Under the pieces are notes generated by a model, which ran no database searches, had not been told where the DNA came from, and was given only the letters and a program-made list of their open reading frames with translations. Source: a virus (taxonomy: Duplodnaviria > Caudoviricetes). From it: DNA of 34,521 bases. Below, in pieces: positions 3-34,521 of this stretch. Positions within the stretch are counted from its first letter, which is position 1, and the number at the start of each line of letters is the position of its first letter. The translations under genes were made by a program, and so were the position numbers. Location of the stretch: IMG/VR virus record IMGVR_UViG_3300033485_000053, positions 1 through 34,521 of that record; one strand, 5' to 3'.

Positions 3-158
3 GCTACAAACGCCAGCCGGTGCGACCTTTACGCGCCAGGAGAAAAGGTTTGCCTAGATGTGGACGGAGAGAATGGCCCGGCAGATGAAACGAGCGATGA
101 GGAAGCGATTTTGGCAATTTGCGAACATAGCGGAAGAGGCAGGAATGGATGTGTCTAA
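3..158 (+). CDS. Partial hypothetical cassette protein (5' end outside window)
   Basis: Frame 3 is open from the edge (ATNASRCDLY...GRNGCV*). Its TAA lies inside the GTCTAAC core site at 153-159. Confidence 0.5.
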   Translation, partial: ATNASRCDLYAPGEKVCLDVDGENGPADETSDEEAILAICEHSGRGRNGCV

Positions 159-278
159 CGAAAAATTAACCAGCGGTGCGATTGATGCACCTAAACAGGA
201 GAAATAAACATGGACGACACCACTGACGATATAAACAATCCCGCTGGCGCACCGTCTGCGTTGAATGTAGGGTTGGGC
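153..278 (-). repeat. attC-like site 1 (126 bp, long loop)
   Basis: GTCTAAC...TTAAC-CAG-CGGTGCG pairs with CGCACCG-T-CTG-C-GTT-G-AA...GTTGGGC; unpaired T, C and G lie on the + strand right arm. Confidence 0.85.
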
Positions 279-419
279 ATCGGAACCCTATTTGCTCTTT
301 CTGGCTGTTCTGGCGCGACAGGAAACATCACTGCGACCGATCCAACAGAGCGCGGATTATCGTATCTTGCCGCTGCCATTGTCACAGCCGCAGTAATTAA
401 AGCGATATGCAACAAGTGA
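210..419 (+). CDS. Cassette A: small hydrophobic protein, possible lipoprotein
   Basis: AGGAG RBS at 197-201 and ATG 210 are in the attC loop. Lipobox-like LSGC and a hydrophobic C-terminal helix. Confidence 0.6.
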   Translation: MDDTTDDINNPAGAPSALNVGLGIGTLFALSGCSGATGNITATDPTERGLSYLAAAIVTAAVIKAICNK

Positions 420-420
420 T

Positions 421-525
421 GCCCAACGTGGAGGTAAGCCGCAACCAACAGCGGCAACAAAATGATGAATGAAACCACAAACTCAAGCCCGCTGTTGGTT
501 GTCGGACTTGACCGTAAAGTTAGCC
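421..525 (-). repeat. attC-like site 2 (105 bp)
   Basis: GCCCAAC-GTGGA-GGTAAG-CCG-CAACCAACAGCGG pairs with CCGCTGTTGGTTG-T-CGG-A-CTT-G-ACC...GTTAGCC. Confidence 0.9.
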
Positions 526-776
526 CGCCGCCATGCCCATTTTGCGGGAAGCCGGTTGACCTTACCGACGAAGATACGCTCTATCAATCCGGTTCCGGAT
601 GGAAATTCGATGAGGATTTGCAAATGCGAACATATCACCGGATTAACGAAGTGCCAAAGGAGCAATGGTGCTACGGAATGCACTGCCCGGAGCCAGCGGG
701 AGGGTGTGGTGCAGAGATACATGGTGACAGCAAGGATGAGGCGCTAGCGAAGTGGAGCAAGTGGGCTAACGAATGA
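462..776 (+). CDS. Cassette B: Lar-like (restriction alleviation family) zinc-binding protein
   Basis: PCPFCG ... C..GGCGA ... SKDEALAKW pattern typical of Lar-family phage proteins. Starts inside attC 2. Confidence 0.7.
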   Translation: MMNETTNSSPLLVVGLDRKVSPPPCPFCGKPVDLTDEDTLYQSGSGWKFDEDLQMRTYHRINEVPKEQWCYGMHCPEPAGGCGAEIHGDSKDEALAKWSKWANE

Positions 777-828
777 AGCTCAGGGGCGGGCGGCTTCTCG
801 CCCGTCCCGCTGGAGCGACCAGTTAGGC
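764..828 (-). repeat. attC-like site 3 (65 bp)
   Basis: GGCTAAC...GCT-CAG-GGG-CGGGCG pairs with CGCCCG-T-CCC-G-CTG-G-AGC-GACCA-GTTAGGC. Confidence 0.9.
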
Positions 829-856
829 TAGGTTTTTTTGATAAGAGGAGAAAAGC

Positions 857-1123
857 ATGGAATACAAACACGTTTTTACAGGATCGTCAGAAACAGAAGG
901 CGAGCTGCGCACCTTCTTGGGCGCAGCGGAATCACTTGATAGCGGAGTGCCAAGAAAACTGTTTACGAACGACTACTACTGGAAAGTGATGACCGTCGGG
1001 CGTAATGGCGAGAAAGACGCTTATCCGAGGTCGCAGGCCAAGGACGACATGGGCGGATTTTTTGAAGAGCGTGACGGGCTTGTTTATCTGACAGAAAAGG
1101 CGAAGAGCTGCATACATGCCTAA
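857..1123 (+). CDS. Cassette C: hypothetical protein
   Basis: GAGGAG RBS upstream. Stop TAA is inside the GCCTAAC core site. Confidence 0.75.
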   Translation: MEYKHVFTGSSETEGELRTFLGAAESLDSGVPRKLFTNDYYWKVMTVGRNGEKDAYPRSQAKDDMGGFFEERDGLVYLTEKAKSCIHA

Positions 1124-1177
1124 CGCAAAGGTAAGCGGCGGAGCGTAGCGGAGTCCGCCTTGACCGTATGGTTAGGC
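1118..1177 (-). repeat. attC-like site 4 (60 bp)
   Basis: GCCTAAC-GCAAA-GGTAAG-CGG pairs with T-CCG-C-CTT-G-ACC-GTATG-GTTAGGC. Confidence 0.9.
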
Positions 1178-1200
1178 ATTTGACAATAGGAGATGAAAAG

Positions 1201-1377
1201 ATGATAGCAATAGAAACTAGATGCCGTTGCGCAAGATGCAAAAAAATAATAAAAGGAAAGCAAAATATCGCTAATTATGAAAAATATAAGCCATATTGCA
1301 GCTACCACTGCCAACAGTGGCACTGACTGGAAGAAGCGCAAAGGCACATAAAAACATTAGTGCCTAACGTGAAATAG
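1201..1377 (+). pseudogene. Cassette D: small zinc-finger protein with in-frame TGA at 1324-1326
   Basis: AGGAG RBS at 1188-1192. MIAIETRCRCARCKK...KPYCSYHCQQWH*LEEAQRHIKTLVPNVK*; CxxC...PYCSxxC resembles a YacG-like finger. Confidence 0.55.
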
Positions 1378-1470
1378 ATACCCTAAAAACTCCGACTAAT
1401 GCACCTTTATTTTTTGTAGTAGCATGAAAGCAAAGTTAATTTTTTAACTAAAAGCGCAGATTTTTACACC
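1362..1470 (-). repeat. attI-like terminal site, copy 1
   Basis: Core site GCCTAAC without a hairpin partner, then sequence 90/105 identical (ungapped, hand-aligned from the AAC) to 8941-9045. Confidence 0.7.
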
Positions 1471-1698
1471 ATGCCAGAACAAATCTGTGGAACCTGCAAC
1501 CATGCATCATTTGGTAAAACGAATGACTGCACCGCCGCAAGCAATATCTGGGAGCGTGGCAGACACATCGAACCGTGGCTAGTAGAGTGTATGCACAATC
1601 CAGCAAAGTGGGAGCCGATAAATACTCACAAAGACTGGGCATCGAAAGCTGTTAGAATAGAAACTATCAAAAACGCATTGAAGAAAGCCGAAGAATGA
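1471..1698 (+). CDS. Hypothetical Cys-containing phage protein
   Basis: ORF whose stop overlaps the next start (ATGA). No clear RBS; ATG abuts the 105-bp repeat. Confidence 0.55.
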   Translation: MPEQICGTCNHASFGKTNDCTAASNIWERGRHIEPWLVECMHNPAKWEPINTHKDWASKAVRIETIKNALKKAEE

Positions 1699-2114
1699 CA
1701 TCACCATACGCATTTGCAAATAAACAAAAAGCACCTATCCCGTTGGAGCATGATATTCAATGTGCATACTTTGAGTGGGCGCGTAATCCTGCAACGCTGA
1801 AAAAATATCCAAAGATACGCTGGCTGCACGCAATAGCCAATGGCGGGGCGCGTCATGTCGTGGTGGCGGTTAAATTGAAGCGAGAAGGTGTTTTAAAGGG
1901 CATTCTCGATGTTTGTCTGCCATGCTGTAGTGGTGATAAGCATGTTACCTATTCGACGCTCAGAATCGAGTTTAAACGCCCAAAAGAGAAAGAAACGAAA
2001 GAGCAGATCGAATTCGCTGAATTTTGCCGCAACGAAGGGCAGAAATGCGTTGTCTGTTTTGATTCTATCGACGCAATACAGATAACCAAAGATTATTTGG
2101 AGGGTAAATTATGA
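1695..2114 (+). CDS. VRR-NUC family (PD-(D/E)xK) nuclease
   Basis: EHDIQ...HAIANGG.R...LKREGVLKGILD...IEFK....QIEF motifs. Confidence 0.85.
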   Translation: MTSPYAFANKQKAPIPLEHDIQCAYFEWARNPATLKKYPKIRWLHAIANGGARHVVVAVKLKREGVLKGILDVCLPCCSGDKHVTYSTLRIEFKRPKEKETKEQIEFAEFCRNEGQKCVVCFDSIDAIQITKDYLEGKL

Positions 2115-2311
2115 TTGACGATTCTATGATTGCACGATTGCTAGAGCAATGTGATCTGAATGACGCTGTACCTACCGTATATCGTGAAGAGTTAAAACAA
2201 TTCGCCCGTGCTTGCTATGCTGCCGGGCGTGATGATGAAAAATTTGATTCAATTCGTTCTATAGCTAATCTCGCAAAGCAAGGCGAACATCCCCTAATCT
2301 CCAATACCTAG
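2111..2311 (+). CDS. Hypothetical protein
   Basis: ATGA-coupled to the nuclease gene with GAGG RBS. Overlaps the convergent gene at its 3' end. Confidence 0.55.
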   Translation: MIDDSMIARLLEQCDLNDAVPTVYREELKQFARACYAAGRDDEKFDSIRSIANLAKQGEHPLISNT

Positions 2312-2477
2312 TGACCCTCCCGCGAATCTTCACAGGTTGCGGGATTGTTTTATCTGTTATAGCTCTACCTATGAAATATGGCGTATTCTTGATTCCGTAT
2401 ATCTCGACAATCTCTGCACAAGTTAGATATACGCCGTCCTCCCATTTATTCATGCGTGGCGGGATATTCGGAGTCAT
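2265..2477 (-). CDS. AlpA/excisionase-like winged-helix protein
   Basis: YLT.AEI.E.YG...IPQPVKI.GR..R.WRLGDV. ATG 2477 is coupled to the upstream stop. Confidence 0.6.
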   Translation of the reverse strand: MTPNIPPRMNKWEDGVYLTCAEIVEIYGIKNTPYFIGRAITDKTIPQPVKIRGRVTRYWRLGDVRLALRD

Positions 2478-2791
2478 TTCATACGTCCAATTTCTGCTGA
2501 AGCGCAAACTATTGCGCGACGAGTTGCTTCTTCATTTCCGTATCCTATATCTGTTTTTTCTGTAACTGATTCTCCATTGCCGAATTTTACTTCAGTTGCG
2601 TATGCTCGAAAATCTATTCCCAGTCTCAATTTAACTGCCAAACACAAAGCATCACCGTCATCCTCTAACGGGTTCCATATCGCGCCGTTTTCAGTAAAAA
2701 AAGCATTTAATGGATGCTGATTACCGTCTAAGTTTTGTAATATTATCCCTGCTGCCTTCGCCGCTAATTCCAACAATTCTTTATCGTTCAT
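2474..2791 (-). CDS. Conserved phage hypothetical protein
   Basis: MNDKELLELAAKAAG...WNPLEDDGDAL.LAVKL...ATRRAIV pattern; ATGA coupling. Confidence 0.8.
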   Translation of the reverse strand: MNDKELLELAAKAAGIILQNLDGNQHPLNAFFTENGAIWNPLEDDGDALCLAVKLRLGIDFRAYATEVKFGNGESVTEKTDIGYGNEEATRRAIVCASAEIGRMK

Positions 2792-2970
2792 GTCAACCAT
2801 CTCCCAATAATAACCATCCCCGCATAAGCCAATACCCACCATTGCCAGCCTTTTCCTGAATCCATGTCATCAGGCTCATCCAACAATGCGCGATAACCGT
2901 ATGCTTCAGTAAGCGTGCGCGGGAAACGGTTTACGCATAGACCGTATTCTGCGTGTAGATTGTCAGGCAT
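2788..2970 (-). CDS. Small hypothetical membrane protein
   Basis: RFPRTL.EA motif and C-terminal hydrophobic helix; overlaps neighbours in the operon. Confidence 0.6.
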   Translation of the reverse strand: MPDNLHAEYGLCVNRFPRTLTEAYGYRALLDEPDDMDSGKGWQWWVLAYAGMVIIGRWLT

Positions 2971-3229
2971 AAGGATGCTCCGTTTCTTTTTGATTTATGC
3001 TATATTCCGAAATCTGCTCATCTGTCATTTCGTCAGGGCAAAATTCAATCATCAAAGAATCAATCTTTGCTTGTTGAGAATTGCATCTTTTCTCAAACAT
3101 TTCACTTGCTGCAATAGCCATACGCGCCGAGGCTTCAGCATTGCCGAGGTCGTGGCGAAGTGTTGCGATTTCTTTTTTCAATTCAGAGATTTCCTTTTCG
3201 CATTGCTCAACAGCTTGTAATAAGCTCAT
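2963..3229 (-). CDS. Hypothetical coiled-coil phage protein
   Basis: AGGAG RBS; QAKIDSLM.E.CPDEMT.EQ motif recurrent in phage proteins. Confidence 0.75.
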   Translation of the reverse strand: MSLLQAVEQCEKEISELKKEIATLRHDLGNAEASARMAIAASEMFEKRCNSQQAKIDSLMIEFCPDEMTDEQISEYSINQKETEHPYA

Positions 3230-3241
3230 TTTGTAATCTCC

Positions 3242-3526
3242 TTATTCTTGCATAAACATCAAAGAGTCAGGCACAACGAATTCCATCCGTTTATCCTTAT
3301 CCATTGCGCGATATACCAGCAATTTACCGCGAATGCGTTTAAGAAAATCGTTTATTGCTGATTGTGGCGTTGCGCCATTACCATGTGTTGATTCCAAGCA
3401 GGCAGAACCAGCTTTATCCTTGAACTCGCAATTATAGAATGACGCGCTCCAACGGCTTTTCTGGTTAGGGTAATAGATTAAGCGAATTTCGATGTTAAGC
3501 GTATCGCAATAGTCTTGAATGTTCAT
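3242..3526 (-). CDS. Hypothetical protein
   Basis: RBS and ATGA coupling within the leftward operon. Confidence 0.7.
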   Translation of the reverse strand: MNIQDYCDTLNIEIRLIYYPNQKSRWSASFYNCEFKDKAGSACLESTHGNGATPQSAINDFLKRIRGKLLVYRAMDKDKRMEFVVPDSLMFMQE

Positions 3527-3720
3527 TTCATCTCCTTAGTAATATCCAGCGAGGTGCTGGTCAACTGCATATCAAATTCTTCGCAAGCCATTAACTGCCT
3601 AGCCAATACATACAGTGATACAGGGCATCCGGAACGCTCTACCATGCGTCTTGCAGCCTGCCGACCGATACTAGGATATAGACGGGCAGCGCGTAATGCT
3701 ATTTGTGCGTTTGGTGTCAT
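3523..3720 (-). CDS. Hypothetical protein
   Basis: ATGA coupling on both sides. Confidence 0.65.
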   Translation of the reverse strand: MTPNAQIALRAARLYPSIGRQAARRMVERSGCPVSLYVLARQLMACEEFDMQLTSTSLDITKEMK

Positions 3721-4133
3721 TTTTTCCTCATTTCTTCTGCCATAGCAGCAATAGCATCAGCAAGCCATAAACCATCTTCACTTTTGAAAAAAGCGAATTT
3801 ATCCAGTAGTTGTTCAAGAGCATCAGCACTAGCCTGCATACTCGATTCTGCATCGTGCTTGTCGAGCCATTGCTGGATGGATGTGGCAGTGGCGCTGAGT
3901 GCCGCTTCTTGTAAAATAAAAGCGTTCTCGCCCGCCTCCGCGATGCTATCTTGTGCGTCCGGTAAGTGACAATACATATTTGCATATTTTCTGGCGCGCT
4001 CGACTTCATTGATAGCTTCGGCCAGCATCGCGTTGTGTGCAGCAAGCCGCTCGTTCTCGACTTTGAGTTCTGCAACCTCTTCTCGCAGACGCTTGGCTGC
4101 GTCAAGTTCCATTTGCACTAGTAAGCTGGTCAT
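3717..4133 (-). CDS. Hypothetical coiled-coil protein
   Basis: AGGAG RBS and ATGA coupling. Confidence 0.7.
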   Translation of the reverse strand: MTSLLVQMELDAAKRLREEVAELKVENERLAAHNAMLAEAINEVERARKYANMYCHLPDAQDSIAEAGENAFILQEAALSATATSIQQWLDKHDAESSMQASADALEQLLDKFAFFKSEDGLWLADAIAAMAEEMRKK

Positions 4134-4777
4134 TTCTTCTCTCCTATTATTCCGTGGGCGGCTTCTACTGCGCGAGTATAGTCAATCCAATCCTCGGCAT
4201 CCATTTTATAAGAACGCACAGTATTCTGTGCAATTTTTAGTACTACCTCCTCACTCAGCGGCTTCTGCTGTGGGAATGGTTCGGCATACAAAGGCTTTGC
4301 CAGATGCCTAGTGCTGGGCATCAATGATTTTGTATCATAAACAAGATGCCCAGCAACTCCTTGCCAAGCAACTGGCTCCTGCTCCATCAGTTCCTTATCG
4401 CGTTCTTCGCGTCCGGCCTGCTTGCCTCCTTCATAAGCCGCCGCAGTGCTGATTGCGCAGGAATCTACCCCGCGCTGATACTCTGCCGCTTTGATGGCGG
4501 CTAGTTCTTCTTGTCCTTTATCAGACATTTTTAATGTGGGCATAAGATGGCATACTAAAGCCTGCTGCGCTGCTAGTTTATCTTGTGCAATGTATGCCTG
4601 CGTATCTGCCGCAAGTCTCGTGCTAAGCAATTCAGATTCCAGTTCCGTAATCCTCTGTTGGCTTTGTTCGGTGGCCGCTTTCCATACATCGAACTCACTC
4701 CGGCCTGCATCCAGTGCTTTACCTTCGTTTCCCTTCCAAGTCTCAAACGCTTCCCGCATATCAGATTCGTAATTCAT
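4130..4777 (-). CDS. Hypothetical phage protein (starts MNYESD)
   Basis: QEPVAW...PLYA.P motif typical of phage accessory proteins. The longer ORF-track version extends into the IS. Confidence 0.75.
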   Translation of the reverse strand: MNYESDMREAFETWKGNEGKALDAGRSEFDVWKAATEQSQQRITELESELLSTRLAADTQAYIAQDKLAAQQALVCHLMPTLKMSDKGQEELAAIKAAEYQRGVDSCAISTAAAYEGGKQAGREERDKELMEQEPVAWQGVAGHLVYDTKSLMPSTRHLAKPLYAEPFPQQKPLSEEVVLKIAQNTVRSYKMDAEDWIDYTRAVEAAHGIIGEKK

Positions 4778-6085
4778 AAAAGTCTCCGTGATACCCCCGG
4801 CTTTAGCCGTGGGGAGGTAAGGAGACGGTTTTGAAGTTGCATTCCCGTCTCGGTTGACAATCTCACACAAATAATATATCGTGTGTAAATGGATGTCAAG
4901 AAAGCATATAGGTTTAGGTTTTACCCAACGCCAGAGCAAGAGCAAATTCTTGCCAAGACGTTCGGGTGCGCTCGCTTCGCCTATAACCACATGCTGCGGA
5001 TACGCACTGATGCGTGGTACAAAGAACAAAAGCGAGTGGGCTACCACGAGACCTCCGCTTTGTTGACTGAGTTGAAAAAGCAGCCTGAAACAATCTGGAT
5101 GAACGAAGTTTCCAGCGTACCAGTGCAACAGTCTCTGCGACATTTGCAAACCGCATTCGGAAATTTTTTCGCCAAGCGTGCCAAGTATCCGGCCTTCAAA
5201 AGCAAACACGACAAGCAGGCAGCGGAATACACTTCCAGTGCCTTCAAATGGGACGGCAAAGCATTGAAACTGGCAAAGATAGATGCGCCGTTAAATATCC
5301 ACTGGTCGCGCACCTTGCCAAAAGCAGCGAAGCCAACCACAGTCACGGTATCCAAGGACGCAGCAGGACGGTACTTCGCTTCGTTACTTTGCGACGACAC
5401 GGTGATGCCGAAGCCGGAAGCCGCAGGACAGATCGGTATTGACTTAGGGCTTACCCACTTCGCCATACTTTCGACTGGCGAGAAGATTGCAGCACCAAAC
5501 ACGTTCCGCAAGAATGAATCCAAGCTCGCAAAGTTACAGAGGCGACTGGCGAAGAAGCAAAAAGGCTCGGCAAACAGATTCAAGGCCAAGCGCAAAGTAG
5601 CAAGGCTACATGCCAAGACGGCAGATACCCGCAGGGATTTTCTACACAAACTTTCAACCCGGCTGGTCAACGAAAACCAAGTTATCGCCATTGAAAGTCT
5701 CGCCGTCAGCAACATGCAGAAGAACCACTGTTTGGCAAAGTCAATCAGCGATGCTGGCTGGTCAGAGTTTGTCAGGCAGCTCGAATACAAGTCGCTGTGG
5801 TACGGGCGCACCTTGGTCGGCATTGACCGCTGGTATCCATCCAGCAAGCGATGCTCCGACTGTGGGCATACTGTACCAAAAATGCCGTTGAAAGTTCGCG
5901 AGTGGGTATGCCCAGAGTGCGGCAGTATCCATGATCGAGACATCAATGCAGCGCGCAATGTTTTAACCGCTGGGCTTGCGGGGTTAGCCCATGGAGTCGA
6001 AGTAAGTCCTGTCATCATTTGATTGTTGTCGGGCATTTGTCTGTGAAGTGGGAATTCCCTGCCTTTAGGCATGGGGAGCAGTCAA
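4778..6085 (+). mobile_element. IS200/IS605-family element, tnpB only (no tnpA)
   Basis: Left end GATA-CCCCCGGCTTTAGCCGTGGGG (4790-4814). Right end GAAT-TCCCTGCCTTTAGGCATGGGG (6052-6076) ending in TCAA (6082-6085). Inserted 3' of TCAT. Confidence 0.9.
4889..6022 (+). CDS. tnpB: RNA-guided endonuclease TnpB
   Basis: KAYRFRFYPT..Q...L..TFGC.RF N-terminus; RuvC GIDLG, IAIESL and DRDINAARN; CSDC/CPEC zinc finger. Confidence 0.95.
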   Translation: MDVKKAYRFRFYPTPEQEQILAKTFGCARFAYNHMLRIRTDAWYKEQKRVGYHETSALLTELKKQPETIWMNEVSSVPVQQSLRHLQTAFGNFFAKRAKYPAFKSKHDKQAAEYTSSAFKWDGKALKLAKIDAPLNIHWSRTLPKAAKPTTVTVSKDAAGRYFASLLCDDTVMPKPEAAGQIGIDLGLTHFAILSTGEKIAAPNTFRKNESKLAKLQRRLAKKQKGSANRFKAKRKVARLHAKTADTRRDFLHKLSTRLVNENQVIAIESLAVSNMQKNHCLAKSISDAGWSEFVRQLEYKSLWYGRTLVGIDRWYPSSKRCSDCGHTVPKMPLKVREWVCPECGSIHDRDINAARNVLTAGLAGLAHGVEVSPVII

Positions 6086-6105
6086 TTCATATCCTCCGCA
6101 ATAGC
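5950..6105 (+). ncRNA. Predicted TnpB omega/reRNA (5' boundary uncertain), guide from the flank at 6086-~6105
   Basis: Inferred from the established TnpB reRNA layout: tnpB 3' end, right end and 3' flank. Confidence 0.5.
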
Positions 6106-6249
6106 TTTAATAGAAACGGTAATCAACTCACGCTTATCCTGCAACAGCAATATCTGGCTACACGCTACAGCCATTTGCTTATCAATCAGGTCTAAATCGC
6201 TTGCCAATGCTGCGAGTGCAATGGCTTTATCAGATAGGGTAATCATCAT
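6082..6249 (-). CDS. Small hypothetical protein (55 aa)
   Basis: MMITLSDKAIALAALASDL...AEDMN*. ATGA-coupled to the upstream gene; the stop is supplied by the IS end. Confidence 0.65.
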   Translation of the reverse strand: MMITLSDKAIALAALASDLDLIDKQMAVACSQILLLQDKRELITVSIKAIAEDMN

Positions 6250-6674
6250 ATCTCCTTAACAATAACATCATCAGAAGATGCGCCGATAGAACGCATCACA
6301 GTTTCAATCAGCAAATCGCGGCATTCTGGTAGCTTGCCTGCGACATAAACACCGGACTTGCTCGACTTCCATCCTATTGCACCAGCTGCAATATGGCTTA
6401 TATCCACAATCTCGCCATCCTCTACAACATACAATCCGATGATGCAAGACATTGAACTACGGCTTACATGGCGGATGCAGGTGTAAATCTTCCCAGCAAT
6501 TCCATATCCTCTACCCGCCGGAAGAATCAAGCCATCCAAGTCATCAATACACTGCAAACGATATGCTTCGCGTCCTTTAACGAATGGCAGCTTAATCCAA
6601 TCATCAGATGGTGCGCGTCCATCTAGTTGATAGATTCGTCCGTTTGGGGCGCGGTGGTAAGTATATGAAGTCAT
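6246..6674 (-). CDS. Hypothetical protein
   Basis: 142-aa ORF, ATGA-coupled on both sides. Confidence 0.7.
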   Translation of the reverse strand: MTSYTYHRAPNGRIYQLDGRAPSDDWIKLPFVKGREAYRLQCIDDLDGLILPAGRGYGIAGKIYTCIRHVSRSSMSCIIGLYVVEDGEIVDISHIAAGAIGWKSSKSGVYVAGKLPECRDLLIETVMRSIGASSDDVIVKEI

Positions 6675-7318
6675 TTGTTAGCTTTCTTAGCCGCAATGCG
6701 TTGTTGGTGTCCTAATGACAAGCTAAGAACCATGCCTCGCCATTCATTCCACCATTTCAATGCGCCAGAATCCATTTGTGATATTTCATCATCGGTAAAG
6801 TTTTCCCATTGAGCATGAGAAAATAGCTTGCATCCGATTTTGATGTGCATATCCATAATCAGGACGAAATACTTAGTCCCGATGAGTTGGATAGGTTCGT
6901 TTTCTAGCGGGATACCTTCTCCGTATGTAGCCCCGACCAGATTCGCCCCGTCCAGATTCGCCCCGCGCAGATTCGCCCCGCGCAGATACGCCCCGACCAG
7001 ATACGCCCCGCGCAGATACGCCCCGACCAGATACGCCCCGTCCAGATTCGCCCCGACCAGATACGCCCCGTCCAGATTCGCCCCGACCAGATTCGCCCCG
7101 TCCAGATTCGCCCCGTCCAGATTCGCCCCGACCAGATTCGCCCCGTCCAGATTCGCCCCGCGCAGATTCGCCCCGCGCAGATACGCCCCGACCAGATTCG
7201 CCCCGCGCAGATTCGCCCCAGCACTAAAAGCGGCTTCTACGCATATTTTCATACTTGCGCATTCAAGCGAAAAGATTACAGAGCCAGTAAAGCGGTTTTT
7301 GATTTCAAATAAAGACAT
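6671..7318 (-). CDS. Pentapeptide-repeat protein
   Basis: 19 x GA(N/Y)L(R/V/D), framed by FEIKNRFTG and IKIGC...W..F domains. GGAG 7 nt before ATG 7318. Confidence 0.9.
   Translation of the reverse strand: MSLFEIKNRFTGSVIFSLECASMKICVEAAFSAGANLRGANLVGAYLRGANLRGANLDGANLVGANLDGANLDGANLVGANLDGAYLVGANLDGAYLVGAYLRGAYLVGAYLRGANLRGANLDGANLVGATYGEGIPLENEPIQLIGTKYFVLIMDMHIKIGCKLFSHAQWENFTDDEISQMDSGALKWWNEWRGMVLSLSLGHQQRIAAKKANK
6930..7219. repeat. 15-bp coding tandem repeat, ~19 copies
   Basis: GCCCCG(AC/TC/CG)CAGAT(T/A)C units. Confidence 0.95.
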
Positions 7319-7640
7319 TTTCATTCTCCAAAGTTAAGTTAGTAACGAGTGCCGCGATGTACGGTTACAACAGATTCTGTAGTTTCGCGCAGAATCCGAG
7401 CCGCAGACTTGATGCGTTTCCAATAAGCGCATCGTTTGACGCGCCGAAGTGTGCGCCAGTGGGTAAGTGTGGTGTGAGTGATGCTCATGGCTGCGCGTAT
7501 CATGCTGTCACCTCATTATGTTGTATTGCTGTTGACCAAAGCTCTATTTGTGTCATTGGAACGCCGACGAACTGAGCGCGCAGACGAGCAAAGGTAAGGG
7601 AGAATTCTGCTAGTTCTAGGAAATATGTGCGGGTCATGGC

Positions 7641-7910
7641 TTATTTACCAAGCCATTCTTGCGATTCTTTTTTCATGCCGTCAAGATTTCTAGCAAGCAT
7701 CGCGGCAAAACTGACGAAATAACCAGATTGTGTATTTGTGCTTGCCATATCGGCAGCCCAACGCATATTTTTAGAACGGAGCTGTTGTTCAGCTTGTTCT
7801 GGTGTGAATTTAAGCTCTAAAAGCAACGCGGCGCAGTTTATCCATTGTGAACCATATCTGCTTGAGCTAAATGCATCAGATGTTTTTTTTGCTAATTGTT
7901 TTGCATTCAT
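7641..7910 (-). CDS. Hypothetical protein, first gene of the leftward operon
   Basis: AAGGAG RBS, downstream of the leftward promoter. Confidence 0.75.
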   Translation of the reverse strand: MNAKQLAKKTSDAFSSSRYGSQWINCAALLLELKFTPEQAEQQLRSKNMRWAADMASTNTQSGYFVSFAAMLARNLDGMKKESQEWLGK

Positions 7911-8040
7911 TTTGTAAATCTCCTTTAAGTGTTTAGGTCTATTAGCTGACCGATTAGCTTTGTTGGAAAGGCTGCTAGTTCCTCATTTACCCTCATTTAA
8001 CAGCGAGCCTCACTATCGCCGCACCTAACCAACAGTTCGC

Positions 8041-8069
8041 ATACTATAGATACGATTCAACCTTGTCAA
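8041..8069 (-). promoter_or_regulatory. Sigma70-type leftward promoter
   Basis: TTGACA-17 bp-TAGTAT on the minus strand. Confidence 0.7.
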
Positions 8070-8115
8070 GCATTTTGTGCGCGCAGATTAAAAATATATG
8101 TGATGCGGAAATATG

Positions 8116-8144
8116 TTTACTTTTTGGAGTTGTGCGCGTACAAT
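8116..8144 (+). promoter_or_regulatory. Sigma70-type rightward promoter reading into array 2
   Basis: TTTACT-17 bp-TACAAT immediately before the attC half-site. Confidence 0.55.
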
Positions 8145-8168
8145 TCAGTCTTGAATGCCGTGTTAGGC
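8145..8168 (-). repeat. attC half-site (one arm only)
   Basis: T-CAG-T-CTT-G-AAT-GCCGT-GTTAGGC has the same spacing as the other right arms. No complementary arm seen upstream. Confidence 0.65.
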
Positions 8169-8195
8169 ATTTTAACAACGAAGCGGAGTAAGAAA

Positions 8196-8420
8196 ATGAA
8201 AAAGCCATACCCATCACTGTGCAAAGACTGCAAACACAGCAAGACAGAAGAACGTAGCGAGTGGAACTTGAGATGTCACCATCCAGTTGTAAATGCAAAA
8301 GACCCGTGGGCGCTTGCAAGCATCAATGCGGGTGGAAGTAATTGCTCCACCGTGCGAGAAAAGCACTGGCCTGCGGCTTGTGGAATGCGCGGCGCACTTT
8401 GGGATGGGAAGAGTGTCTAA
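8196..8420 (+). CDS. Cassette E: Cys-rich hypothetical protein
   Basis: GGAG RBS at 8185-8188; LCKDCKH...C.HP...C...R......CG..G.LW; TAA inside GTCTAAC. Confidence 0.75.
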   Translation: MKKPYPSLCKDCKHSKTEERSEWNLRCHHPVVNAKDPWALASINAGGSNCSTVREKHWPAACGMRGALWDGKSV

Positions 8421-8477
8421 CGCAAAGTTAACCGGCTCCGCGCTTTTGCGGAGTCCGGGTTGAACGGCGGGTTAGCC
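8415..8477 (-). repeat. attC-like site 5 (63 bp)
   Basis: GTCTAAC-GCAAA-GTT-AAC-CGG-CTCCGC pairs with GCGGAG-T-CCG-G-GTT-G-AAC-GGCGG-GTTAGCC. Confidence 0.9.
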
Positions 8478-8705
8478 ACTACGCCAAGAGTGCTAGGGCA
8501 TTCCAGAGATTGCAGAACGCAACAGTGGATGATTACATGCCCCAAATGCGCCAAGCAATTCGAGCCGCAAACAACGCGACTTTCATGGCAGTCAATGGAT
8601 TGTCCGAAGTGCGGAACATCTTTGATCGCCGATTACAATGCGGAGCCACCAACTGTGAGGGTGGCTAACGTGGAGTTGAGCGGGCGCGCTGAGAACGCAA
8701 TTTAA
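8460..8705 (+). CDS. Cassette F: zinc-ribbon protein
   Basis: Two CPKC motifs. Probable TTG start with GGAG (8450-8453) inside the attC arm. Confidence 0.65.
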   Translation: MNGGLATTPRVLGHSRDCRTQQWMITCPKCAKQFEPQTTRLSWQSMDCPKCGTSLIADYNAEPPTVRVANVELSGRAENAI

Positions 8706-8747
8706 TCAACCACGCTTCGGGCGCTCCGCTCGAACGGAAAGTTAGGA
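8663..8747 (-). repeat. attC-like site 6 (85 bp)
   Basis: GGCTAAC-GTGGA-GTT-GAG-CGG-GCGC pairs with GCGC-T-CCG-CTC-G-AAC-GGAAA-GTTAGGA. Confidence 0.9.
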
Positions 8748-8754
8748 ACTTACC

Positions 8755-8952
8755 ATGAAACAGAAAAAGATAGAACTTCTTGTAACCTATAAATTTAAGG
8801 TTAGTTATGAGCACGCAGACCACCTACGAGAGATAAAAAAAGAACTCAAGAAACACCCGATAACCAACATGGATGGAGCAGGAGTAGCAAGCGATGGGGT
8901 TGTCTATGGATACTCATGCAAACTTATTAAGGCGTTTCCTAACGTGAAATAG
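8755..8952 (+). CDS. Cassette G: hypothetical protein
   Basis: The AGGA of the core site could act as RBS. Ends PNVK* in the attI-like site, like cassette D. Confidence 0.7.
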   Translation: MKQKKIELLVTYKFKVSYEHADHLREIKKELKKHPITNMDGAGVASDGVVYGYSCKLIKAFPNVK

Positions 8953-9045
8953 GCACCCTAAAAACCCCAACAAATACACCATAATTTTTTTTAGCCACAT
9001 GAAAATAAAGTTAAGTTTTTAACTAAAAGCGCAGATTTTTACACC
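8937..9045 (-). repeat. attI-like terminal site, copy 2
   Basis: Direct repeat of 1362-1470; the last 30 bp are identical. Confidence 0.7.
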
Positions 9046-9058
9046 AAAAGGAACTGAT

Positions 9059-9283
9059 ATGGAAGAGAAGACACCAAAGAAACGCGGACGCAAGACAATC
9101 TCGAAGGATGGCGCAAAGATGCTTAACCGTAACTTCAGGACTACGGATGCAGAATGGGAATCGTGCCTATTGTTTGGCGGCGGAAAGTGGATTAGATCGC
9201 AGATTCATCGGAAGATTAGGCTGGATGCTCAGAAAAAGGTTGATGAAATGTGCGCACCAGTTTTGGCAGAAACGGAGAAATAA
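9059..9283 (+). CDS. Small putative DNA-binding protein (ribbon-helix-helix-like)
   Basis: KKRGRK basic N-terminus; RNFRTTDAEW...GG.KWIR; AAGGA RBS. Confidence 0.6.
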   Translation: MEEKTPKKRGRKTISKDGAKMLNRNFRTTDAEWESCLLFGGGKWIRSQIHRKIRLDAQKKVDEMCAPVLAETEK

Positions 9284-9284
9284 C

Positions 9285-9446
9285 ATGGAACAGAAATTAA
9301 AAATAACGCGTAATAAAATAAAAGAAAAGCTACAGGAAGGACTAGATGTGAACAACTGGTCTATTGTTGGAACAAGAGGATCAAACGCAGCATTTTTGAA
9401 GCTTCTTATTGAATATCTTAAGAGCAAAGGAATTGAAGTGCATTGA
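9285..9446 (+). CDS. Hypothetical protein
   Basis: GGAG RBS; follows the previous stop directly. Confidence 0.6.
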   Translation: MEQKLKITRNKIKEKLQEGLDVNNWSIVGTRGSNAAFLKLLIEYLKSKGIEVH

Positions 9447-9452
9447 CAGTAG

Positions 9453-9746
9453 ATGACATCAATCGTGGATAATATAGTTGACCTGCACGCAGCAAGAAAA
9501 GAGCGCGAGCCGCACAGCACAGGTGAAGCTAGATGCTTGTCTTGTAACCACGAATGGATAGCGGTAGCACCTACTGGCACAGTTTGGCTAGAATGTCCTG
9601 AATGCTCGATTGAAAAAGGCAGATTCGTCGCGCATCACGAAAGAAGTGGCGACCATTGGGAATGTGATTGTGGGTGTGACTTGTTCTACATAACACCGGA
9701 CGGAATGTATTGTCCTAATTGCGGAGATTGGCAGCATGGATTCTGA
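9453..9746 (+). CDS. Zinc-binding hypothetical protein
   Basis: CLSC, CPEC, CDCG and CPNC motifs. Confidence 0.75.
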   Translation: MTSIVDNIVDLHAARKEREPHSTGEARCLSCNHEWIAVAPTGTVWLECPECSIEKGRFVAHHERSGDHWECDCGCDLFYITPDGMYCPNCGDWQHGF

Positions 9747-34212: not shown

Positions 34213-34521
34213 TTACTTCTGAACAATTATCTGAAGCATTGGATTGTCCGTTAGAACGTGCGCAGAAATGGTGCAAACCGATTAACGCTGCTATGCGAGA
34301 ATTCGACATTAACACGAATGAGCGTATTGCGGCATTCATCGCGCAAATTGGGCATGAATCAGGCCGTCTCGTTTATGTAAAAGAAATATGGGGGCCAACA
34401 GCTTCACAGCGCGGCTATGAATTCCGCCACGACCTCGGCAATACTGTTGAAGGTGATGGTCACAAATATCTTGGGAGGGGCTTAATTCAGATTACAGGAC
34501 GCGCCAATTATCGTGTATGTG
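34209..34521 (+). CDS. GH19 (chitinase-like) endolysin, truncated by the window end
   Basis: RIAAFIAQIGHESG.L...E; DLGN...GDG.KY.GRGLIQITGRANY. Confidence 0.92.
   Translation, partial: MITSEQLSEALDCPLERAQKWCKPINAAMREFDINTNERIAAFIAQIGHESGRLVYVKEIWGPTASQRGYEFRHDLGNTVEGDGHKYLGRGLIQITGRANYRVC

Follow-up and report, generated by a model that had tools for sequence, protein, structure and literature searches.

Integron cassettes in phages that lack an integron integrase have already been described. In the main-text parts of Qi et al. 2023 (PMC9892861), 17 phage attC clusters that have no integron integrase (CALINs) are reported, IntI1 recombined five of six tested sites, and an attI site is found at the start of the CALIN in the Shewanella prophage M16-3. 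According to passages of Bouvier 2009 (PMC2727003) and Nivina 2016 (PMC5027507), attC is cut within AAC of the bottom strand, and the choice of this strand serves expression from the promoter Pc beside attI; in the same passages of Nivina 2016, unpaired bases opposite AAC mark the bottom, recombined strand. Parts of the preprint on attG sites and single attC sites lacking integron integrases (SALINs; bioRxiv 10.1101/2022.09.11.507474) also describe that IntI places cassettes outside its own integron.

The DNA analysed here (the window) is the whole of the virus record IMGVR_UViG_3300033485_000053 (Caudoviricetes; 34.5 kb), with an estimated completeness of 83%. It probably carries two attC arrays of a P22-like phage, ended by attI-type sites towards which the cassette genes are directed, with a host IntI inserting and excising the cassettes in trans. 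This reading draws on the attC anatomy and polarity of the hairpins, the match of cores across each gene, the identity of the docking core with sites that adjoin intI, and differences between related phages that start at AAC, each of which was observed.

Core complementarity and attC anatomy

The first 9 kb contain small accessory genes, and seven of these (A to G; A-D lie at the left end, E-G at 8.2-8.9 kb) are each boxed by GTT and AAC cores. An earlier note on this DNA had claimed that the core left of each gene is the reverse complement of the core right of it. All six core pairs quoted there were found where they had been placed and are exact reverse complements, and the cores of gene E have one mismatch (in 8), as had been reported. 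Counted from the G of GTT, the matching run is 10 bases in A, 8 in B, 7 in C, 8 in D, 5 in E, 9 in F and 8 in G, which gives 7-10 bases in six of the seven genes. The permutation test that had been proposed yielded a total of 55 against a mean of 37.6 (standard deviation 4.6), and 8 of 5040 re-pairings reach 55; when only positions 6-9 were considered, 84 of 5040 pairings were as good. Runs within one hairpin are 3, 3, 5, 9, 5 and 5 bases, and a mismatch between the two ends of one hairpin inside the 7-mer, also described before, was present in five of the six hairpins, with 1118-1177 as the exception. The test was repeated with the first cassettes of other phages, taking 15 of 17 distinct loci (two whose closest modelled hairpin was over 700 nucleotides (nt) distant were dropped); the total was 124 against a mean of 85, with a maximum of 119 in 20,000 permutations, some of these phages being related to one another. 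Circles rebuilt in silico, as had been suggested, gave junctions that fold better than the integrated form in five of six cases. The match across each gene is the known footprint of integron cassettes opened from a circle, as the earlier note held, and agrees with the passages of Bouvier 2009 (PMC2727003) in which 9-11 nt are complementary across R' and R'' in most cassettes. It fits either polarity equally. An extra right core at 151-159 had been overlooked; its partner would fall left of the contig end.

The polarity was resolved from the hairpins themselves. Our own detector, with the plus strand as bottom strand, recovered six of six hairpins, none on the other strand and none in 10 shuffles, together with one long further hit at 34286 that is probably false; it replaced an earlier, stricter detector that had recovered only three of the six window sites. 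The hairpins carry R''/R' boxes (AAC, GTT), L''/L' boxes and spacers of 5-6 nt (7 nt in one case), and the L boxes pair 6/6 in all six full hairpins, with one extra G. This G is unpaired on the plus strand, in the arm opposite AAC, and was found together with a T 7 or 8 nt further in in seven of seven right arms, the half site before gene E included. A covariance model built only from 11 attC hairpins of bacterial loci gave six matches in the window, with E values from 1.5e-5 to 2e-11, and each of them was to the minus strand. Minus-strand folding failed to distinguish the polarities (hairpin 0 had a z of -0.2, no better than shuffles), and these were told apart by where the unpaired bases lie. 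The unpaired G and T on the plus strand and the model matches confined to the minus strand indicate that the coding strand is the bottom strand: from the sequence, the canonical attC top strand is predicted to be the minus strand and the coding (plus) strand the recombined one. With the plus strand as bottom strand, the crossover would fall at AA|C right after the gene, and a cassette would consist of a hairpin and the gene downstream of it. Opening of the circle at G|TT on the plus strand, as the earlier note had implied, is contradicted by this; the canonical G|TT on the minus strand is AA|C on the plus strand after the gene, and AA|C is also favoured over G|TT by the comparison of related phages (see below).

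The features of array 1 are the following:

153-278, minus strand: attC hairpin 0 (attC model E 1.5e-5; extra G at 263, T at -8)
159-426, plus strand: cassette A, hairpin 0 plus gene A, open reading frame (ORF) 210-419, 69 amino acids (core run 10; putative boundaries by the AA|C rule)
421-525, minus strand: attC hairpin before gene B (attC model E 2.1e-7; fold z -3.5)
427-769, plus strand: cassette B, ORF 462-776, 104 amino acids, Lar-like zinc-binding protein (PF14354, E 0.002, below the cut-off)
764-828, minus strand: attC hairpin before gene C (attC model E 2.6e-8; one spacer of 7 nt, not 5)
770-1123, plus strand: cassette C, ORF 857-1123, 88 amino acids, no family (from the core run)
1118-1177, minus strand: attC hairpin before gene D (attC model E 1.4e-8)
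1124-1367, plus strand: cassette D, first at docking site 1 (direct reading of the sequence)

The features of array 2 are the following:

8116-8144, plus strand: promoter-like sequence ahead of the array (9 of 12 consensus bases)
8150-8168, minus strand: half attC site, only the arm adjoining gene E left (extra G at 8153, T at -8)
8162-8420, plus strand: remnant of cassette E, ORF 8196-8420, 74 amino acids, cysteine-rich, no family (core match with one mismatch)
8415-8477, minus strand: attC hairpin before gene F (attC model E 6.2e-10)
8421-8668, plus strand: cassette F, ORF 8460-8705, zinc-ribbon-like (homologues in L203 and L204)
8663-8747, minus strand: attC hairpin before gene G (attC model E 2.1e-11)
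8669-8942, plus strand: cassette G, first at docking site 2, ORF 8755-8952, 65 amino acids (core run 8)

Array 1 has four full hairpins and array 2 has two, with no PF00589 match on the 83%-complete contig, so both qualify as CALINs (at least two close attC sites and no integron integrase). The genes are interlocked with the hairpins. The loop of hairpin 0 contains an AGGAG ribosome site and the ATG (210) of gene A, which has no PHROG or Pfam match; the first 19 codons of ORF B lie inside hairpin 421-525 and its stop inside the next hairpin; gene F has its likely start and stop both within hairpins, and the stop codon of gene G comes from docking site 2. This anatomy, with starts in the own hairpin and stops in the next hairpin or terminal site, fits hairpin-first cassettes, and the plus strand of genes B and F is backed by homologues. 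ORF D starts at 1201 and stops at 1326, after which the frame reopens and reaches a stop within the docking site (1377), so that gene D looks broken. Neither the detector nor the attC model found a full hairpin before gene E, and cassette E, having half a hairpin, is likely fixed in place. Hairpin 764-828 is 88% identical over 60 nt to a hairpin of locus L022. Hairpin 8415-8477 is of a common type that three other runs show flanked on either side by many different genes, with loose ends at 8417-8419 and 8473-8480. Promoter-like matches were no commoner than in shuffles, and position is the sole argument for 8116-8144. On the minus strand, 8069-8010 comprises a leftward promoter-like sequence (10/12) followed by a GTTAGG core preceded by a half-site-like run; it resembles a mirror image of array 2's promoter plus half site and is possibly the relic of a third, leftward array.

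Docking sites and gene direction

Genes D and G are followed by a 109-bp element and not by a hairpin; the two copies are 86% identical over 109 nt:

1362-1471, minus strand: attI-type docking site 1 and conserved tail (predicted crossover 1367|1368)
8937-9046, minus strand: attI-type docking site 2 and conserved tail (predicted crossover 8942|8943)

The first 14 bases of the element were found in 69 viral loci, many of them by chance. Within these loci the attC model gave 35 matches in 20 (17 distinct), all upstream of the site and with the polarity of the window, and none downstream. A longer site pattern retrieved 19 loci in bacterial genomes and the search of one bacterial order 9 further loci, with the orienting motif present in 8 of them. 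IntI matches starting 85-223 nt past the site were detected in five of 27 bacterial-genome loci and in none of the 69 viral loci, two of the five intI-adjoining loci coming from one genome. In one locus (L191) the integron integrase is intact (488.8 bits against a cut-off of 265), and hairpins and genes lie on the opposite side of the site; intI pieces lie beside the site in L092, L081, L192 and L193. The raw number of sites was rejected as evidence: among 401 genomes from the order to which genome G007 belongs, the site with at most one mismatch turned up in 7 and the reversed control in 4; therefore only adjoining intI counts. Judged by its position, the docking site probably represents an attI of beta- and gammaproteobacterial integrons.

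No literature naming the docking core as attI was found. In three genomes with intact or partial intI (G006, G007, G010) the site was absent from the DNA examined, the 18-base tail motif of the docking site was found in no viral contig, and no intI gene was found beside either docking site of the window. A promoter Pc reading from the attI end gave no minus-strand consensus match at either site in a scan that was weak. The tails (1385-1471 and 8960-9046) are conserved between the two copies (86%), and unlike bacterial attI tails. Each has a short palindrome (at 1435-1449 and at 9010-9023) together with direct repeats of the L box that resemble ACACC, which might be accessory integrase sites. 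Locus L038 has a second attI-like core within its array, about 1000 nt upstream of the matched site, which indicates attI duplication in other phages too; in the bacterial genome G315 (L189, L192, L193) three copies of the attI core are present, two of them beside intI pieces.

According to the integron-cassette rule, the gene is located on the attC top strand, upstream of its own attC, and is read from the attI side. The cassettes of the window are arranged otherwise: every cassette gene faces attI, whereas bacterial cassette genes read away from it. In a count restricted to core runs of at least 7 (22 viral and 12 bacterial rows before this threshold, 9 and 5 dropped), 12 of the 13 viral loci had the longest ORF of the first cassette directed towards attI, whereas 6 of the 7 bacterial-genome loci had it directed away (Fisher p 0.0012, the rows not being independent). 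A second count based on model-defined hairpins gave 16 of 17 phage first cassettes directed towards attI. The bacterial exception, L086, is a 968-nt contig with a site of the phage-like type. Both L086 (from an Anabaena bin) and L095 (from a Saccharibacteria bin, with methyltransferase-like ORFs) show the phage-type layout with genes towards the site, and may be phage contigs within those bins.

Cassette exchange and alternative explanations

In three related phages (L001, L008 and L061) identity is 92-96% over the 300 nt before the left AAC and 93-95% past the docking site, and falls to 39-54% in the 40 nt after AAC, with a different hairpin and gene in each phage. The difference begins 2-3 nt past AAC and no left arm is retained. 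A cut at G|TT on the plus strand would leave the hairpin with the upstream gene, so these differences favour AA|C. In another phage (L014) a 367-nt unit of hairpin plus gene separates a gene from the docking site, both of which are adjacent in L011 (flanks 96% and 100%). In other runs, gene C and gene F have homologues whose sequence departs from the window 2 nt past AAC, and a gene C homologue of run X3 matches up to 1126 and is followed by a different hairpin. The earlier note had advised a search for the cassettes in other contexts, and this was successful for gene B and a neighbour gene, which are cassettes with other neighbours in other phages. For gene B, homologues enclosed by hairpins and next to other genes occur in L071, L072 and L073 (the same as L074), while L070 has it without hairpins. 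The neighbour gene (9453-9746, zinc-ribbon-like) lies behind docking site 2. In L195 and L196 hairpins enclose it as a cassette; here only a decayed core is present and the hairpin is gone, and the gene is likely a domesticated cassette.

The previous statement that the units really moved, and fairly recently, is supported as regards other neighbours in other phages, and unsupported as regards recent movement in this phage: there is no circle joint in the contigs of the source run, G is unmoved in an 89% relative, and E, D and the nearby gene show decay. That relative is a contig of run X3 (89% identity) with part of a hairpin, gene G and the docking site, in which G is still first at attI. 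The marks of decay are the loss of one hairpin arm in E, the internal stop in D, one long spacer, and the absence of a hairpin at gene 9453-9746. Movement between close relatives was shown for other phage families, not for this phage. Source-run contigs, in which rare forms are lost, match the window; one of them skips 9266-9474 and has 12 other letters instead, being a variant or a relative without that stretch. Joints 523-1121 (run X1), 788-8660 (runs X2 and X4) and 1167-917 (run X3) were rejected as excision products or circles, with only 21-39 letters and unknown sequence between, and were read as common hairpin types.

In the mechanism that we propose, phage replication would free the coding strand as a single strand, which would fold, and a host IntI would cut the folded attC at AA|C. 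The circle released (hairpin plus downstream gene) would be reinserted at the attI-type site, pushing older cassettes upstream, and phage promoters situated where the oldest cassettes lie would drive transcription of the cassette genes. Several cassettes would bring ribosome site and start inside their own hairpin and borrow the stop from the next hairpin or attI, and old cassettes would lose a hairpin arm and turn into ordinary phage genes.

Several observations weigh against this mechanism. No recombination event, circle or junction was observed in contigs, and none of the circle or excision joints sought is listed for the source run, for which contigs only, at about 10x depth and from 65% of the run, were covered. 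Most bacterial site matches have only intI fragments or no intI near, and the identical attI core among the fetched loci, the window included, is imposed by the search pattern itself. In cassette D the minus-strand ORF is longer than the plus-strand ORF; about 17% of the genome is missing. In three further comparisons the upstream hairpin has not simply stayed with its gene: L195 and L196 have the gene 98.3% identical, with only 78% identity in the preceding 18 nt and 63% in the following sequence; in a run-X3 contig gene F is 99% identical but the two hairpins have kept no more than their outer arms (8462-8687); and another run-X3 contig has promoter and half site in common up to 8155 and then differs.

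These comparisons bear on the idea that the units were once attC cassettes and are now mainly moved by homologous or template-switch exchange inside similar stems, through phage functions and with an inherited core match. Such exchange would keep both cores with the gene, so that the core match does not speak against it; it accounts for the outer arms kept with gene F and for the differences of L195 and L196 within the upstream hairpin, and it is helped by hairpin types common to many genes. It does not account for differences that start 2-3 nt past AAC in L001, L008 and L061 with the left arm not kept, nor for the whole extra unit of L014 exactly at the docking site, and an attI core kept at the array ends of many unrelated phages makes little sense without an integrase. 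As the main route it is therefore unlikely, but exchange within stems seems to occur as well, and probably acts in addition to IntI. Also rather improbable is a recombinase encoded by the phage itself, in the unassembled part of the genome, or by a co-infecting phage. The contig is incomplete and starts inside array 1. Of 15 other viral records that were checked, four are near-complete (at least 90%), and a tyrosine recombinase is present in two of these four and in none of the rest; both enzymes score far below the IntI cut-off and are phage integrases of the ordinary kind. A phage of 99% completeness (G416) has the docking site and four hairpins and no PF00589 (tyrosine recombinase) match, and bacterial integrons that have a classical IntI possess a matching site and matching hairpins. 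The window contig has no PF00589 match either, and a host IntI acting in trans is thus the simplest inference and likely.

The ordinary orientation, in which each hairpin follows its own gene and is cut at G|TT on the plus strand, would fit the match across genes equally, and one contig keeps 18 nt of hairpin past gene F; a variant of it, top-strand backward insertion of ordinary cassettes, could appeal to passages of Nivina 2016 (PMC5027507) in which top-strand recombination inverts cassettes at a low rate. However, six of six hairpins score on the minus strand only, G and D are followed by the attI core and no hairpin, and conserved genes precede differing hairpins; insertion through the top strand would leave gene and attC in their usual relation and turn attC round with respect to attI, whereas here the relation of attC and attI is the usual one and the gene is flipped. 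This orientation, already largely refuted by the phage comparisons and the attC model, is very improbable. Finally, the hairpins are intergenic inverted repeats, as terminators or repetitive extragenic palindromic (REP)-like repeats with a chance match would be. The permutations (8/5040 and 0/20,000), the full attC anatomy and the reading frames that run through four hairpins argue against such repeats, a terminator scan listed none at any of the six hairpins, and an Rfam scan of the window gave no family; stems and loops also vary between hairpin copies. An origin as terminators or REP-like repeats can practically be discarded, and the earlier view that these are integron-type cassettes was borne out.

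Genome context and relation to known integrons

From 11.2 kb on, the window encodes terminase, a P22-type portal with P22-like relatives, scaffold, coat, head-closure (Ad3/Hc3) and ejection proteins. Among 80 loci with terminase relatives, four have one hairpin or site-like match in the DNA examined and none has an array, so the arrays are not tied to the head genes. A comparison of both arrays with 50,697 annotated phage records gave no matches; in metagenome contigs gene C matched only the window's own contig, and the search with gene G returned no viral relative. An IS605-family TnpB gene (4889-6022, region 4780-6085) interrupts a minus-strand phage gene region, with a run-X3 joint (4533-4637) close by. 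The best match of TnpB in a plasmid collection is from Burkholderia stagnalis (72.5%), which may be a weak hint at the host. A pentapeptide-repeat protein gene (6671-7324) contains a 15-nt tandem repeat. Two inverted matches were also noted, a perfect one of 20 nt between 1284-1303 (cassette D) and 6384-6403 (an unrelated gene 5 kb off), and one of 22 nt (95%) between 3136-3157 and 34425-34446.

The arrays resemble the phage CALINs of the main-text parts of PMC9892861 in that a phage lacking intI has at least two attC sites no more than 3 kb apart, and differ from them in the two attI copies and in that every gene faces attI. Inverted genes, starts within hairpins and turnover at a phage-borne attI are not described in those main-text parts, and its tables and supplement may bear on inversion. 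With the sedentary chromosomal integrons of Beta- and Gammaproteobacteria the arrays share the attI core, the type of attC and its polarity relative to attI; they are unlike these integrons in that no intI lies beside the site in the phage, the genes are directed towards attI, the sequence behind the core is different and no promoter from attI into the array is listed (weak scan). The hairpins agree with attC as given in passages of Bouvier 2009 and Nivina 2016 in the R and L boxes, the spacer, the extra G in L'', the inner T and the predicted cut in bottom-strand AAC, and with those of Bouvier 2009 (PMC2727003) in the extended R'/R'' pairing within a cassette; they are unlike them in that the bottom strand is the coding strand in the phage, and the rationale of expression from Pc cannot apply to the phage arrays. 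As in attG sites and SALINs, following parts of the preprint, cassettes would be placed outside the integron of the IntI, but the target in the phage is a conserved, reused attI core, whereas attG differs from attI and attC. No literature on inverted, attI-docked phage arrays was found, subscription papers lying outside the scope, and the available parts of the attG preprint (10.1101/2022.09.11.507474) and of Ghaly 2021 (PMC8352920) contain nothing on them. Phage CALINs are thus already known, and what is new here is a mirror-image integron platform that has two copies of attI and lacks an integrase.

The link of the docking core to bacterial integrons with a classical, intact IntI names an enzyme and two candidate substrates, and hairpins that bear a ribosome site and first codons bear on how a gene joins an attC site. 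On balance, we lean slightly towards the view that many phages of Betaproteobacteria keep attI sites and a mirror-image cassette pool, in which the host integrase swaps accessory genes. If this is true, the cassette pools of host and phage would be exchangeable, because the same enzyme and site serve the host integrons, and any phage cassette inserted into an integron of the host would lie antisense to Pc. Filling of these sites by the host IntI would mean that phages and integrons have a cassette pool in common and that phage mosaicism results in part from site-specific recombination by a stress-linked host enzyme.

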